Of a stretch of DNA of 64,000 bases, positions 15,852-64,000 are shown piece by piece. The stretch is from Minisyncoccota bacterium (GTDB taxonomy: Bacteria > Patescibacteriota > Minisyncoccia > Phycocordibacterales > Phycocordibacteraceae): NCBI GenBank assembly GCA_036399335.1, contig DASWNF010000005.1, forward strand, positions 6,069-70,068, given 5' to 3'. The notes below the pieces were generated by a model. That model saw only the letters and a program-made list of their open reading frames with translations, was not told the DNA's origin and made no database searches. The stretch's first letter is position 1. The number at the start of each line of letters is the position of its first letter. The translations under genes were made by a program, and so were the position numbers.

Positions 15852-17060
15852 TCATTTCGGCTCAAAAAGTCCGGTAAGGTCTTCATAGGTCTGGCGGCGT
15901 TTCGTAAGGCGGAGGTCATCCCCGTCTATCAGCACTTCGACTGCCGTCCCTCGCATGTTATACGTCGAGCTCATGGAGCTCCCGTACCCGCCTGCGACCA
16001 ATAGGGCGACAAGGTCCCCTTCCTCGGGGCTCGCGAGCTCGATGTCCCGGTTCATGACGTCTCCGGTCTCGCACAGGTTTCCGGCGACGACGACCGGCAC
16101 GGCTTCACCTTCAGGCTTTGAGAGGTTTACGACATGATGGTACGCGCCGTACATCGCCGGACGGACGAGATGGTTGAAGCCCGTATCAAGCCCGACGAAG
16201 GTGCGTCCGCCCTTCTCCTTTATGGTCGTGATGCGCGACAGCAGCACGGTCGATGCGGACACCAGGTACTTGCCGGGTTCAAGGTAGAGCGTGAGCGCGC
16301 GTCCGGTGCGCGCCGTAAAGTCCGCGAGCGTGCCGCGCGCGGACGCGGCCAAGGCCTCAATGTCGATCTCGCTTTGTTCAAGACGGTACGGTACGCCGAA
16401 GCCCCCTCCCAGGTCTATAAACAAGGCGTCTTCGAACCGTTCGGCAATCCCGGCAACGGCGACCATGGCCTGGCTCAGGGCCGAGGCCTCATAAAAGCCC
16501 GACCCAATGTGGCAGTGGATGCCGACGATGGCGACGCCTGCGGCGTCGCAGATGCGCTTGGCTTCGTCGACGTCAGAAAGCGCAATACCGAATTTAGACT
16601 CGACGTTACCTGTCGTCACTTGCTCAAATTCCCCTGCCCCCACTTCAGGGCATATGCGCACCGATACGCGGTCATTCGGGAAGAGCCTGCAGAAGCGGCG
16701 TATCTCGGAAAGTGAGCCGAGGTTCTGGAGCACGCCCTTCGTGCCTGCATAGCGAAGTTCGTCATCGGACGGGTTGCTTGGCGTATAGAGCACCTGGTCG
16801 GGCGTGAAGCCTAGCTCGAGGGCAAGGCGTATCTCATGCGGGGAGACGGCGTCGATGCCGTCTATCCCGGCTTCTTTAAGGACGCCTACGATATGCGGGT
16901 TGTAGTTTGCCTTAACGGCATAGAAAAGCTTCGTCTCCGCGCCGAAGGCTGCGCGCATCTTCCGCACCTGTGCGCGGAGCGTGCTTGCGTCCGTAACGAA
17001 TGCCGGCGTGCCGTGCAGGGTTGCTACGGATTCGGCGTGCGCTCTTGAAGGGGTGTACAT
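15852..17060 (-). CDS. lysA: PLP-dependent decarboxylase, diaminopimelate decarboxylase family (fold-III Orn/DAP/Arg decarboxylase)
   Basis: motifs FYAVKAN (PLP Lys), HCHIGSG, YLEPGKYLV, CETGDV...GGYGSSMSSTYNMR; start set to MYTPSRAH (17060) to leave a promoter spacer before divergent M23 gene; track ORF extends to 17123. Confidence 0.8.
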   Translation of the reverse strand: MYTPSRAHAESVATLHGTPAFVTDASTLRAQVRKMRAAFGAETKLFYAVKANYNPHIVGVLKEAGIDGIDAVSPHEIRLALELGFTPDQVLYTPSNPSDDELRYAGTKGVLQNLGSLSEIRRFCRLFPNDRVSVRICPEVGAGEFEQVTTGNVESKFGIALSDVDEAKRICDAAGVAIVGIHCHIGSGFYEASALSQAMVAVAGIAERFEDALFIDLGGGFGVPYRLEQSEIDIEALAASARGTLADFTARTGRALTLYLEPGKYLVSASTVLLSRITTIKEKGGRTFVGLDTGFNHLVRPAMYGAYHHVVNLSKPEGEAVPVVVAGNLCETGDVMNRDIELASPEEGDLVALLVAGGYGSSMSSTYNMRGTAVEVLIDGDDLRLTKRRQTYEDLTGLFEPK

Positions 17061-19583: not shown

Positions 19584-19618
19584 GGGTACGGCTAAGCACG
19601 GAAGGCGCACGCGATATG

Positions 19619-19645
19619 AAAAAGGCCCCGAGCGGGGCCTTTTTC
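19619..19645. terminator. bidirectional terminator AAAAAGGCCCCG-AG-CGGGGCCTTTTT
   Basis: perfect 7-bp GC stem with A5/T5 flanks. Confidence 0.7.
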
Positions 19646-19659
19646 ATAAGACGCTTCCC

Positions 19660-19965
19660 TTAGCGGGGCGACGAGGTCGAGGTGACGGTCGTCGTGCTGT
19701 TGAACGTGTTGTTTATGACGGAGGGTTCGATGCTTGCGCCCGTACCCGAACTGTTCGTTCCGGTGCCTCCCATGCCTGCACCCGTATTGGCTGCGGGCAC
19801 GGTGACGTTAACCTCATTGTCCGCGTTGTCAGAGCCGTTGAAGAGCTGCGGGAACAACATGAGGGCAAGGAGGAGAAGGATAATAATGACGACGATTGCC
19901 ACGATCCAGCCTCCCGCGCCGTTGCCGTTATTCGTCCCGTCAGGACCGTTTACTATAGTTGCCAT
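19660..19965 (-). CDS. small membrane protein with Gly/Thr/Asn-rich extracytoplasmic tail
   Basis: 101 aa, one TM helix (IVAIVVIIILLLLALMLF), GC3-rich codons on - strand; + strand ORF 19682..19972 judged antisense. Confidence 0.4.
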   Translation of the reverse strand: MATIVNGPDGTNNGNGAGGWIVAIVVIIILLLLALMLFPQLFNGSDNADNEVNVTVPAANTGAGMGGTGTNSSGTGASIEPSVINNTFNSTTTVTSTSSPR

Positions 19966-41806: not shown

Positions 41807-41892
41807 TGGTGCGCCGGGCAGGATTCGAACCTGCGTAGGATAAATCCGCTTGGTTTACAGCCAAGTGCAATTGACCACTCTGCCACCGACGC
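41807..41892 (-). tRNA. tRNA-Tyr (anticodon GUA), class II with long variable arm, CCA encoded
   Basis: reverse complement reads GCGTCGG TG GCAG AGTGGTCAATTGC ACTTGG CTGTAAA CCAAG CGGATTTATCCTACG CAGG TTCGAAT CCTGC CCGGCGC A CCA; acceptor 7 bp (one G-U), anticodon loop CUGUAAA, T-loop TTCGAAT. Confidence 0.85.
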
Positions 41893-41935
41893 GAGTACTC
41901 GCCAGTATAGCAACTCAGCGCCTAGAGTTCCAGGA

Positions 41936-49881: not shown

Positions 49882-49946
49882 AGGTACGTGGCAATCCGTT
49901 AGGAGTTTACGGTATATAAAATAAAAGTCAAGCCCCCAGAATTCGG

Positions 49947-58537: not shown

Positions 58538-58786
58538 ATGATGATGGATCGCGGTACGTCCTTTAAGAAAGAGCTGCAGGCACTGTGCATCGTGGTGACT
58601 ATCCTGCTCGCGGCGACATTATTGATTTTCGGGCTGCTCCAGTTTATTTGGGTAGCCAGCGAATATCGGCCGGGCAACAGGGGTTACAACAGCATGCTGG
58701 CCGACGCCTACCTCCTCATGGGGGTTGGCGTCATCCTCCTGCAGAACTGCCTGCGGCGGATGCGCGAGCTCTGGCCCGCGCGATAA
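58538..58786 (+). CDS. small two-TM membrane protein
   Basis: 82 aa; followed by strong bidirectional terminator. Confidence 0.4.
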   Translation: MMMDRGTSFKKELQALCIVVTILLAATLLIFGLLQFIWVASEYRPGNRGYNSMLADAYLLMGVGVILLQNCLRRMRELWPAR

Positions 58787-58787
58787 T

Positions 58788-58822
58788 CAAAAGGGCGCCG
58801 CGAGTATCGCGGCGCCCTTTCT
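58788..58822. terminator. bidirectional terminator AAAGGGCGCCGCG-AGTAT-CGCGGCGCCCTTT
   Basis: perfect 13-bp stem with A/T flanks between convergent genes. Confidence 0.7.
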
Positions 58823-58845
58823 CATTTAGTCCCTCTATATATCTA

Positions 58846-59433
58846 TTACCAGAGGTAGAGCGTCTCGGTCTTTTTATTGAGCTTAAGGGTCGTGAGGTCC
58901 TCCTTCGTGTTCCCTACCTTATACCCGAGCGTCGTGAACTGGACAGCGTAGTTACCCGACTCCTTAGGGGTAAGCCATACTGTTGCCGTAATGGGGGACG
59001 ACTTCCCGTTCTTGATCTTGCAGTACCCCTTGGCCTTCGTTGAGCAGGATACTTTGGAGAGCTGTAGGCCGCTGAAGTCGTCACCCTTGAGGGTATAGGA
59101 CACGCCAGTCTCGCCACGCGTCGAGTCAGTCGTCGTCATCGGGATGTAGATATCAGCACCTGAAGCGGTCGCGATGAACTCAATCTCGAAGCCGCCATAG
59201 CCTTCTGCCTTGAAGATTGTGTTGCGCACCTCGATGCCACTAATGCTAAGCGTGCCCTCTTTAGACGGAGACGGTTTCTGTGTGGCCTTAGCTTCGAGGT
59301 CGGCGAGCTTCGCCGTGAGGGAAGCTATCTGGGACTTCAGCTTCGCAATGTCCTTTGCGTAATCGGTCGTTGCGGCCTGGGCAGGTACGGCAATGAGGAA
59401 GAGGAATGCTGCGAGGATAAGGAATTTCTTCAT
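58846..59433 (-). CDS. secreted protein with signal peptide and coiled-coil
   Basis: 195 aa; MKKFLILAAFLFLIAVPAQAA signal, then heptad-like region. Confidence 0.5.
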   Translation of the reverse strand: MKKFLILAAFLFLIAVPAQAATTDYAKDIAKLKSQIASLTAKLADLEAKATQKPSPSKEGTLSISGIEVRNTIFKAEGYGGFEIEFIATASGADIYIPMTTTDSTRGETGVSYTLKGDDFSGLQLSKVSCSTKAKGYCKIKNGKSSPITATVWLTPKESGNYAVQFTTLGYKVGNTKEDLTTLKLNKKTETLYLW

Positions 59434-62050: not shown

Positions 62051-62839
62051 CTACTTCAAAAGTTCTTCCTGGGTTGCTGCAGTCGCGCGCCAAATGCTAA
62101 TCCCTACCACCGCCCCAACAATTGCCCCGGCAACGACGTCGGAGAGCCAGTGGAACCCGACCGAAGCTCCTGCGGCCACGATCAGAGCCCATGCCAGTGT
62201 GACAAAGCGTGTTGCTGGACGACGGTACGCGAGGTAGAGCACCGTAGCCCCTGCAACTGCCACGGCGGTGTGGTGGGAAGGCCATCCCCAGAAGATGCCG
62301 TGCTCGAAGAAGCCGAACTGGAAATTGCGGCTATGGTCGCTCGTCTCAAACGTCGTTAAGAACTCGGGCTGTATCCTTCCGGTGAATGTTTTGTAAACGG
62401 CGATGATAATCCACGCAACCACTGCGGCCTGTGTCGTGGCCACTGCTGCGCGTAAGGCAGTTACGTCCTTTTGTCTTTGGCCCCATATATATAGGCCGAC
62501 GGGTAAAAGTATCGGTACAAAGAACCCACCGACGCCCGCAAGCATGATGAGCGGATACAAGGCATCAATGCGGGTCTTTTGGAAGAACCACCAATCAAAG
62601 CCCGTTAATACGAGCACGGCCGTAATGCCTGCCGCAGCGACATGCCATACCCAAAAGTGCCCGCGATACGGCGCGAACATACGTTGCGGCAAGTGGCTTA
62701 GGAGTGTCTGGAACATACGTAAAGGTGAGTATACCAAGCCCGGCTCCGGGCCGTATTGTGAGCTTTCTGCGACATGTGCTACTTTCTGTCCAGACCCGAG
62801 CTCTGGAGGCACTAAATGGCGAAGCGCATGGTTTTTCAA
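62051..62839 (-). CDS. PAP2 family membrane phosphatase-like protein
   Basis: six TM; motif remnants KTFTGRIQP, WPSHHTAVA, HWLSDVVAG; start probably at an internal Met (62716 or 62680) since the first 24 nt overlap a divergent gene. Confidence 0.5.
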   Translation of the reverse strand: MKNHALRHLVPPELGSGQKVAHVAESSQYGPEPGLVYSPLRMFQTLLSHLPQRMFAPYRGHFWVWHVAAAGITAVLVLTGFDWWFFQKTRIDALYPLIMLAGVGGFFVPILLPVGLYIWGQRQKDVTALRAAVATTQAAVVAWIIIAVYKTFTGRIQPEFLTTFETSDHSRNFQFGFFEHGIFWGWPSHHTAVAVAGATVLYLAYRRPATRFVTLAWALIVAAGASVGFHWLSDVVAGAIVGAVVGISIWRATAATQEELLK

Positions 62840-63025: not shown

Positions 63026-63135
63026 GCCACCGACTGCGCGCATGCGCGTTGGTGGCTTCGTTTTATCCTGGGCCCTGAAACGTTGGAAGCAATTTCCAAC
63101 CATGCTAGGGTCTGTCCAGATTGCAGGAGGAAGTC

Positions 63136-63453
63136 ATGAAGACTCATCATATGTGGGTTAAGTCCATGCTCCTCGCAGACATTGAACGCGGGGACAAGGA
63201 TTTGGAAATCCGCCCGGCCAAGGGTGTGTTCTTGAAAATCAAATGCGGCGACAGGCTCGTCTTCAATCAGCGGCTTCACCGAACCGTGGTTGCCGTTCGG
63301 CGCTATGAGAGCATGGTCGCTGCGGTTATCGCTGAGCCTGCGGCGCACCTGTGGCCAGGCCATAGGCAGCAAGAAGTCCTCGCTGCATTAGCCGATCTAT
63401 ATAATCCCAACGACGACGCCTTTGTCGTTTTCGAACTCGTTAAAACCCCGTGA
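63136..63453 (+). CDS. ASCH domain protein
   Basis: 105 aa from MKTHHMW (AGGAGG SD just upstream; earlier ATG at 63121 lies inside the SD); pattern ...GDKDLEIRPAK...GDRLVF... typical of ASCH/PUA-like. Confidence 0.6.
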   Translation: MKTHHMWVKSMLLADIERGDKDLEIRPAKGVFLKIKCGDRLVFNQRLHRTVVAVRRYESMVAAVIAEPAAHLWPGHRQQEVLAALADLYNPNDDAFVVFELVKTP

Positions 63454-63475
63454 CCATGTATGGCTCACGGGGTTT
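63443..63475 (+). terminator. hairpin AAACCCCGTGA-11 nt loop-TCACGGGGTTT overlapping the ASCH stop codon
   Basis: perfect 11-bp stem; short T-tract only. Confidence 0.45.
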
Positions 63476-63479
63476 ACTC

Positions 63480-63602
63480 TTACGCTGGTGTTGGAACTCT
63501 TTATCAGCGAGCCGTGTAATAGCTACTGGAAAGATATGGAGGTGGTGATGACTTGATTCCCTCATCGTCCTCGCCCAACCTCCTTTTAGGGGGTTCTTTT
63601 TT
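63480..63602 (+). ncRNA. candidate small RNA / leader with start-stop micro-ORF and intrinsic terminator
   Basis: perfect SD GGAGGTG, 5-nt spacer, ATG-ACT-TGA (or MEVVMT), then AACCTCC-TTTTA-GGGGGTT hairpin plus T6 (63577..63602). Confidence 0.25.
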
Positions 63603-63953
63603 GCCGACTCTGAGGTTATCTAGGAACGTTCTTGACTGACGGCCTCTGCTTCGTATACTCCTCATGGGTTCAGGTAACAGTCCAGGTTCGGTTTGTGAGT
63701 CTGTAATGGGCTCACGAAACTCATTCCGTTTCGACGGGATGTTCTAAGAAAGGGTTCGAACCCCTTTCGCTGGTCCGGAGATTACCTGATTGATCGAAGA
63801 GTAGATGGGAGACTGTGAGGGTATGGTTTCGGCTATACCTTAGTCGTCAATGAGACACCATCGATATTGGGGACAAGAATAATGCCTCTCGTAGGCTGAC
63901 CTTCCGAGGATCCTGAACCCACCTGCCGCTCCACGTTGGAGCGGCTTTTTCTT
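63603..63953 (+). ncRNA. candidate structured RNA (riboswitch/leader or sRNA) ending in strong intrinsic terminator
   Basis: no ORF of 60 aa or more on either strand; contains CGTTTCGACGGGA (tmRNA D-loop-like), GAAAGGG-TTCGAAC-CCCTTTC T-arm-like hairpin, GGTATGG-TTTCGG-CTATACC hairpin, ATAATGCC...CGTAGG (TPP-box-like), terminator CCGCTCCA-CGT-TGGAGCGG plus T5 at 63926..63953. Confidence 0.25.
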
Positions 63954-64000
63954 ACTGTTGCCGGCTCTGGGACTGTCTCGGACACGAGTATAGAAAAAAG

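Follow-up and report, generated by a model that had tools for sequence, protein, structure and literature searches.

A candidate small-RNA gene with a copy of the L1-stalk head of 23S ribosomal RNA in a gene-free stretch of a Minisyncoccota genome

Near the end of the 64,000 nucleotides of Minisyncoccota DNA analyzed here (contig DASWNF010000005.1; the window) lies a gene-free stretch of ~870 bp, from 63454 to ~64324. Within the 73 kb of this genome that was scanned for gaps, terminators, and promoters, it is the sole long non-coding stretch: the median intergenic gap is 45 bp by a rough gene call, and the two "gaps" that come next in length turn out to be small coding genes. What, then, does this locus hold? 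We lean slightly toward the joint reading that it consists of two convergent, stand-alone small-RNA genes (units C and D) together with the 3' ends of both flanking messenger RNAs (mRNAs), and that C works by mimicry in trans, binding ribosomal protein uL1 and/or the elbows of transfer RNAs (tRNAs). Two kinds of evidence point this way: a copy of the L1-stalk head of 23S ribosomal RNA (rRNA) in C, and the exact register of transcription signals and closing helices in both units.

An earlier note on this DNA had reported more than 550 bp without open reading frames (ORFs) and had called it unusual beside spacers of tens of base pairs. The stretch is real and does stand out, but it is longer than was thought and runs past the end of the window. 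For bases beyond 64000 we used L001, a 100-kb ENA contig (ERZ27253082) identical to the window, as is a Logan contig (SRR10954984); L001 positions equal window positions minus 53135, which places the gap at L001 10319-11189. Its flanks are convergent, with an ASCH-like gene of 105 amino acids on the + strand and an ORF of 97 amino acids on the - strand. Codon-position GC periodicity, which all neighbor genes show, is present in no frame of the gap, and its longest stop-to-stop frames, taken as possible pseudogene relics, have no Pfam match even with the cutoff relaxed to E ≤ 1.

The L1-stalk head copy in unit C

The second of three domains in C aligns without gaps to positions 2214-2281 of the Rfam model LSU_rRNA_archaea (RF02540; 29.2 bits, E = 5.2e-7), with a posterior probability of 1.0 throughout. 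The corresponding part of E. coli 23S rRNA (2111-2178) also has 68 nucleotides and also aligns without a gap. A covariance model of our own, made from the E. coli sequence and the archaeal consensus with the element itself left out, matches it from end to end (39.4 bits, E = 2e-7); in 1.67 Mb of DNA, mostly from the candidate phyla radiation (CPR), the runner-up reaches only 16.8 bits. All 13 model pairs are standard pairs in the copy, and two of them are compensatory G-C to A-U double changes with respect to E. coli, one in helix 77 (2121:2177) and one at the base of helix 78 (2128:2160).

The residues that give the stalk head its shape are likewise retained. Of the 22 consensus positions that are conserved most strongly, the element has the identical residue at 20. 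Both T-loops keep their AG..A / UG..A core (A63798, G63799, and A63803; U63851, G63852, and A63855), and the platform residues are G63796 and A63853, equivalent to E. coli G2112 and A2169. Outside the variable body of helix 78, the element agrees with the archaeal consensus at 36 of 47 positions and with E. coli at 32, where E. coli and the archaeal consensus agree with each other at 38. If the stalk fold is enforced on C, the cost is +5.1 kcal/mol with tertiary contacts excluded, and the closing helix that joins the ends of the RNA remains intact. In the enforced fold, a junction of three hairpins (63678-63792) is followed by the stalk head (63796-63862) and then by a small 3' arm. The "TGAGA..CACC" string that was once read as the 3' half of a thiamine pyrophosphate (TPP) aptamer is indeed present, at 63851-60, but it is T-loop 2 with a helix-77 strand of the stalk copy.

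The match stops at 68 nucleotides. It can be extended by 3 bp at most, the complete surroundings of large-subunit (LSU) rRNA (helices 75, 76, and 79, domain V) are not found, and rRNA is matched nowhere else in C, in D, or in the rest of the gap, which argues that the stalk copy is a module rather than a piece of an rRNA gene. The loci fetched contain no 23S gene and hence no CPR stalk for comparison. This match surfaced only when a 306-nt unit was scanned alone, where the filters of Infernal are laxest. Rfam scans that covered 1 kb and 1.8 kb came out negative because their speed filters dropped a real 29-bit LSU match, so the cmscan check proposed in the earlier note would, taken at its negative result, have been misleading.

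Transcription signals and alternative readings of units C and D

We scored sigma-70-type promoters as matches out of 12 to the -35 and -10 boxes on both strands. Only seven sites in the 73 kb reach at least 10/12, and five of these lie 26-50 nt upstream of protein genes; one falls in the gap, as do three of the ~16 perfect-stem terminators. The pattern TTGACT-N16-TAnnCT occurs three times: before C, before D, and before an ordinary gene at 49931. In both units the 5' arm of a perfect long-range helix begins 5-6 nt past the -10 box, the 3' arm lies next to an intrinsic terminator, and the helix forms with an ensemble pairing probability of 1.00 (Table 1). The terminator of C is the CCGCTCCA-CGT-TGGAGCGG hairpin with five Ts that had been noticed before, and it is present at 63926-44.

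This geometry is rare. Thirteen of the perfect-stem terminators are intergenic and usually stand 20-40 nt past the end of a gene. Among the 21 strand-specific terminators, only T3 and T4 are abutted by a long-range perfect helix (10 bp each, with 5' arms at 63665/63666 and 64225), whereas the other 19 have at most 7 bp. Judged in silico, C has its own promoter, its own terminator, and no coding potential, as expected of a stand-alone small-RNA gene. It folds to -94 kcal/mol on the + strand and to -73 kcal/mol on the - strand. C and D have no sequence similarity and no complementarity to each other, and nothing recognizable was found in D, which also lacks any rRNA match.

Two further observations concern these signals. 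The convergent terminators of C (63925-63945) and D (L001 10863-10885) are ~40-50 nt apart and have a common apex, CA-CGU-UG. A tRNA-Tyr gene (41807-41910, - strand) has a TATACT -10-like box just upstream, a hexamer identical to the -10 box of C.

Table 1. Positions of predicted features in the gap (window numbering unless L001 is given)
Feature	Position	Strand	Details
T1, 12-bp hairpin with one bulge	63443-63475		Overlaps stop codon of ASCH-like gene (TGA, 63451-53)
Unit B	63476-63602	+	GGAGGUG 63538-44; AUG-ACU-UGA 63548-56; terminator T2 (63577-95 + U6)
Promoter of unit C	63632-63659	+	TTGACT (63632-37), 16 nt, TATACT (63654-59); 10/12
Unit C	63666-63953	+	288 nt, promoter to terminator
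Closing helix of C, 5' arm	63666-63674	+	GGGUUCAGG; 6 nt past -10 box, at predicted transcript start
Domain I of C	63678-63792	+	Four-way junction, three hairpins
Domain I hairpin, 11 bp	63692-63718	+	From fold
Domain I hairpin, 8 bp, UUCG loop	63722-63741	+	Site of the "tmRNA motif" of the earlier note
Domain I hairpin, 7 bp, T-loop-like UUCGAAC	63748-63768	+	From fold
Domain II of C, copy of 23S rRNA L1-stalk head	63795-63862	+	68 nt; E. coli 2111-2178
T-loop 1, AGAGUA	63798-63803	+	E. coli AGGAUA (2114-19)
Helix 77	63804-08 / 63858-62	+	Covariance alignment
GA bulge	63809-63810	+	Conserved
Base of helix 78	63811-13 / 63843-45	+	Covariance alignment
Helix 78 body with UUCG loop	63819-63840	+	Covariance alignment
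T-loop 2, UGAGA	63851-63855	+	E. coli UGAAA (2167-71)
Domain III of C, small 3' arm	63870-63908	+	Overlaps longest unpaired stretch of unconstrained fold
Closing helix of C, 3' arm	63912-63920	+	CCUGAACCC; perfect pairing with 5' arm, then ACCU
T3, intrinsic terminator of C	63925-63953	+	9-bp stem (63925-45), CGU loop, U5
Unit D, 3' end	63993-64000	-	Rest beyond window; RNA of ~233 nt (L001 11090 to 10858)
T4, terminator of D	L001 10885-863	-	6 nt past 3' arm of closing helix
Closing helix of D, 10 bp	L001 11090-81 / 10901-892	-	GGUGAGAGAG perfectly paired with CUCUCUCACC
RNA start of unit D	L001 11090 (= window 64225)	-	6 nt past -10 box
Promoter of unit D	L001 11124-19 / 11102-097	-	-35 TTGACT, -10 TAAGCT; 16-nt spacer

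The terminal helix of C resembles a 7-bp acceptor stem followed by a discriminator A and CC (GGGUUCA...UGAACCC-A-CC-U, 63666-63674 / 63912-63924), without a G3.U pair and with an end that is not CCA. Transfer-messenger RNA (tmRNA) is recognized by a G3.U70 acceptor stem, a T-arm directly 5' of the 3' acceptor strand, and a CCA end. C shares with it a similar size, a terminal helix that begins 5' GGG and ends CCC-ACC 3', one T-arm-like hairpin, and the UUCGACGGG string, and ARAGORN at no more than 93% of its threshold draws a poor cloverleaf over 63692-63776. The same relaxed setting, however, makes a spurious call at 16913, and we rejected this region as a tRNA; with default settings, ARAGORN finds neither tRNA nor tmRNA in the gap, and the Rfam tRNA model likewise finds no cloverleaf there. 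Every defining test of tmRNA fails here. None of the Rfam tmRNA models (standard, alpha, beta, cyano, and permuted) matches at E ≤ 10 even with the most permissive filters, the third pair is G3-C, the T-arm-like hairpin lies ~145 nt upstream of the 3' strand, and the tail is ACCU, whereas the tRNA-Tyr of this genome encodes CCA. No tag ORF with a hydrophobic, Ala-rich tail appears in the three-frame translation of C. The 7-bp stem with a TTCGAAC loop that had suggested a tmRNA is present at 63748-68, and so is the supposed D-loop analogue CGTTTCGACGGGA (63727-39), but UUCGACGGGA is the loop and 3' arm of the UUCG hairpin.

The TPP lead has a similar outcome. The ATAATGCC..CGTAGG string occurs at 63879-95, and part of this TPP-like motif is included in the longest unpaired stretch of the unconstrained fold of C, AAGAAUAAUGCC (63875-86). 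No match at E ≤ 10 is found with the Rfam models for TPP (RF00059), 6S RNA, or the signal recognition particle (SRP) RNA, and scans of the window, L001, and four relative loci (L083-L086) at the Rfam gathering thresholds yielded nothing relevant. Inspection of the first gene past 64000, which the earlier note had proposed as a check for thiamine genes, leads to the convergent 97-amino-acid ORF on the - strand, where a riboswitch in C would have nothing to regulate. Since the flanking genes are convergent and three + strand terminators lie between them, a riboswitch or attenuator would be without a gene to act on. The unit also belongs to a non-core insertion. We therefore regard it as next to inconceivable that C is a tmRNA or a TPP riboswitch, or that the gap holds a leader-peptide attenuator.

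Could C instead be a leaderless mRNA? An ATG at 63664, at about the predicted transcript start, opens a frame for a 27-amino-acid peptide (MGSGNSPGSVCESVMGSRNSFRFDGMF). This frame has no Shine-Dalgarno sequence, while the neighbor genes have strong ones, shows no codon periodicity, and would be buried in the closing helix and hairpins. It would also leave ~200 nt of strongly folded RNA, the stalk copy among it, without explanation, and we consider this reading highly improbable.

A classical seed-pairing mode for C also finds little in the sequence to recommend it. In C, 66% of the nucleotides are paired, and the targets of the few stretches left free are at chance level only. Its complementarity to the start regions of neighboring genes shows no preference, and seed-like 8-mers occur at chance level. 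That C is largely paired, with chance-level targets, speaks against seed pairing of the classical kind.

The 3' end of the ASCH-like gene and the lineage-specific block

The upstream part of the gap appears to belong to the ASCH-like gene. The hairpin over its stop codon is present as the earlier note described (63443-63475). It has a weak U-tail on the + strand (UUUACUCUU) and UUUUAA on the - strand, and T1 is thus the first terminator of the gap and may be bidirectional. Unit B, between T1 and the second terminator T2, is most likely the 3' tail of the ASCH mRNA. The ribosome-binding motif and start-stop micro-ORF reported there exist, but the spacer is 3 nt when counted from GGAGGTG and 5 nt from the GGAGG core; the alternative MEVVMT reading starts at 63536. 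A hairpin with six Ts (63577-95) does follow the micro-ORF. The GGAGGU of unit B is able to pair with the ACCUCC arm of T2, an antiterminator-like alternative without evident purpose. These elements had been compared with leader-peptide or ribosome-sensing attenuators. Such a role does not fit, as no target gene follows on the + strand, no promoter site of at least 9/12 precedes unit B, and the unit folds no better than shuffled sequence (z = -0.6). Elsewhere, a weak Rfam match to Thr_leader (19616-19709, - strand) scores 29 bits with E = 0.0024, short of the gathering score, and probably reflects no more than the hairpin of a bidirectional terminator at 19624-39.

The gap lies 2.2 kb from the gene for alanyl-tRNA synthetase (AlaRS), whose relatives are 74-82% identical. 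It is part of a ~4.6-kb block between AlaRS and a gene of 382 amino acids, from ~61940 to the window end at 64000 and on to L001 13415 (L001 8805-13415), with the order PAP2, 69-amino-acid gene, ASCH-like gene, gap, and genes of 97, 285, and 214 amino acids. All seven relatives whose sequence or gene calls reach beyond AlaRS lack this block and have, directly after AlaRS, homologues of the 382- and a 419-amino-acid gene, then IF-1 and S13. It is missing as a whole from all the closest AlaRS relatives (77-82% identity), and a tblastn search with its six proteins against the four relative loci gave no matches. The fraction of GC at third codon positions is 0.58 in the 285-amino-acid gene and 0.47 in the 214-amino-acid gene, compared with 0.77-0.79 in core genes. 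The absence from relatives and this low value make the block, with the gap inside it, lineage-specific and probably acquired.

No terminal or tandem repeats of the kind that mark a mobile element were found at the block, and searches of its proteins with PADLOC, PHROGs, NCBIfam, and Pfam were uninformative: no defence, phage, or curated family explains it. Viral scans with three of the proteins were negative. The ASCH-like protein matches PDB 1xne (P. furiosus PF0469; E = 3e-7), but a search of 5.8 billion clusters turned up no relative of its gene. When the 97-, 285-, 214-, and 69-amino-acid proteins were joined into one query, a single match was returned, a relative of the 285-amino-acid protein only. 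This sole relative (62% identity; L105 10001-11185) comes from an unrelated CPR context, among small hypothetical genes and ~8 kb from a serine recombinase gene.

Other peculiarities of the neighborhood may be recorded here. An 18-nt box occurs at 62777-62794 and 63103-63120 (TGCTACTTTCTGTCCAGA / TGCTAGGGTCTGTCCAGA, 15 of 18 positions identical), ~20-40 nt upstream of both the 69-amino-acid gene and the ASCH-like gene; an operator or promoter element common to the two genes is one possibility. A second lineage-specific addition, genes of 195 and 81 amino acids (window 58541-59433, L001 5406-6298), is located between the 419-amino-acid gene and IF-1 and has no counterpart in the four relative loci, where IF-1 directly follows the 419-amino-acid homologue. 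The two closest relatives have gene-free gaps of ~380 bp at the junction of AlaRS and the 382-amino-acid gene (L083 11912-12302 and L084 7430-7804). These gaps are dissimilar to each other and to that of the window, which suggests that the junction is a variable spot.

Known stalk mimics and a possible role for C

Two T-loops arranged head to tail, with an invariant core of six residues, make up the stalk head, which stacks against the G19:C56 platform of the tRNA elbow (PMC3664808). The same double T-loop module is found in RNase P and in T-box Stem I (PMC3664808); it docks tRNA elbows in "at least three classes" of RNA, and more are expected (PMC4810234). The copy in C has all of the 68-nt, gap-free 23S head: the T-loops, helix 77, the GGGAG core, and helix 78. 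It differs from the 23S setting in lacking the long helix 76 and the flanking domain V, in having its own promoter and terminator, and in forming one arm of a ~290-nt RNA in an accessory gene block. With T-box Stem I and the J11/12-J12/13 module of RNase P it shares the six-residue core (AG..A / UG..A) and the flat platform for the tRNA elbow. Unlike those modules, it is rRNA-like in sequence rather than convergent and includes helix 78, and C has no specifier, T-box sequence, P4 sequence, or downstream gene. The Rfam T-box and RNase P models have no match at E ≤ 10 under permissive filters.

The rRNA mimics known so far are short operators that act in cis, through which ribosomal proteins repress their own mRNAs. 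Operators for uL1 are stems of 37-41 nt with a G-A bulge that precede rplK or rplA (PMC3616713). The isolated 55-nt stalk fragment is bound by uL1, and mRNA mimics of 36-49 nt are bound more weakly, which is the basis of feedback control (PMC2175363). Both the operators and C imitate the same rRNA site, with a GGGAG core (a G-A bulge plus an unpaired A) between two paired segments (in C, GAUGG-GA-GAC / GUC...CCAUC; consensus PMC3616713, see also PMC2175363), and the expected common mode is competition with 23S rRNA for uL1. One could thus propose that C is a displaced L1 operator from an rplK or rplA leader whose gene has been lost, or a T-box-like leader, because T-box Stem I has the same double T-loop followed by a terminator (PMC3664808). 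But the operators act in cis, have neither T-loops nor helix 78, and bind more weakly than rRNA (PMC3616713, PMC2175363), whereas C contains the full rRNA-type head in a free-standing RNA without a ribosomal gene nearby. No L1, L11, L10, or L12 gene is present in the 73 kb, no + strand gene follows, the T-box model is negative, and the element lies within a terminated RNA, inside its closing helix. A displaced leader of either type is quite unlikely.

We suggest instead that C would be transcribed from its own sigma-70-type promoter as a stable small RNA, both of whose ends would be locked in helices, the closing helix and the terminator. Its central arm would display a stalk head of rRNA grade, with helix 77, the GGGAG core, helix 78, and both interdigitated T-loops. 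Such a free copy of the uL1 site and tRNA-elbow platform might titrate or dock one or both of these partners. A more specific version is tentative, and we hold it to be doubtful: as an independent "L1 stalk in trans," C could hold on to tRNA elbows, or to its own tRNA-like domain I, and/or sequester uL1; carried on an acquired block in Parcubacteria/CPR, it would in this way tune E-site function or ribosome composition. As an analogy of mechanism only, 6S RNA and CsrB-type RNAs are also stand-alone, structured, and paired at their ends, and they imitate the nucleic-acid target of a protein. They have no relationship to C in sequence or structure (the Rfam models are negative), and the target imitated by C is an rRNA element.

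Several observations weigh against a functional small RNA that binds uL1 or tRNA. The -10 box of unit D is weak (3/6 matches). When 30 windows from this genome serve as calibration (mean z = -0.67, sd 1.6), the core of C has an only moderate folding score (z = -2.9) that 3 of these 30 ordinary windows match or beat, and the core of D has z = -1.3. With z-scores this modest, the case rests on signal geometry and not on folding energy. C lies inside a lineage-specific, compositionally odd insertion and could be recently acquired, unselected sequence. The 73 kb encode none of L1, L11, L10, and L12; some Parcubacteria lack uL1 altogether, and some CPR lineages lack helix 78 (bioRxiv 10.1101/2022.01.07.475337). 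Finally, no homologue of C or D was found, and there is thus no support from covariation or conservation for the RNA as a whole. A covariance model of all of C has no match in 1.63 Mb of CPR loci, and blastn and nhmmer detect nothing like the gap in 80 GTDB AlaRS loci (45-62% identical). A structure-aware metagenome pattern (UUCG hairpin plus T-arm) has 18 matches, all chance T-arms of tRNA or tmRNA or coding sequence. BLAST searches of phages and plasmids with the RNA gave no match, and an L1-stalk-type pattern has two matches in viral contigs, both due to chance.

Much of this is what one would expect of an inert relic, the main rival: an insertion that carries a scrap of 23S rRNA and leftover promoters and terminators of decayed genes, with nothing functional. 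The block is lineage-specific and foreign-looking in composition, C and D are orphans, and their folding z-scores are modest. A relic does not account well for the precision of the parts. Only the 68-nt stalk head matches rRNA, and nothing else in the gap does; its 13 helical pairs are intact and include compensatory changes; and in C the closing helix, a perfect 9-10 bp, lines up exactly with the promoter, the start, and the terminator, a build that is repeated in D. Neutral decay that erased all coding signal would not spare these signals, and nearly all of the 870 bp can be assigned to a signal or unit. We consider a relic unlikely.

The sequence features that the earlier note listed were all found, at or near the positions it gave, and its general conclusion that the gap contains a candidate novel structured RNA holds and gains strength. 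In one literature library, no free-standing small RNA with a stalk element is described, which is not proof of novelty. If the proposed role of C is correct, a separately transcribed small RNA with a complete, rRNA-grade stalk head would be a new use of the double T-loop module, as a trans decoy for uL1 or as a small RNA that docks tRNA. A practical lesson is that routine Rfam scans of kilobase windows failed to show this match on account of their speed filters. C is among very few concrete candidates for a small-RNA gene in CPR bacteria, whose ribosomes vary at exactly the stalk site that it would imitate.

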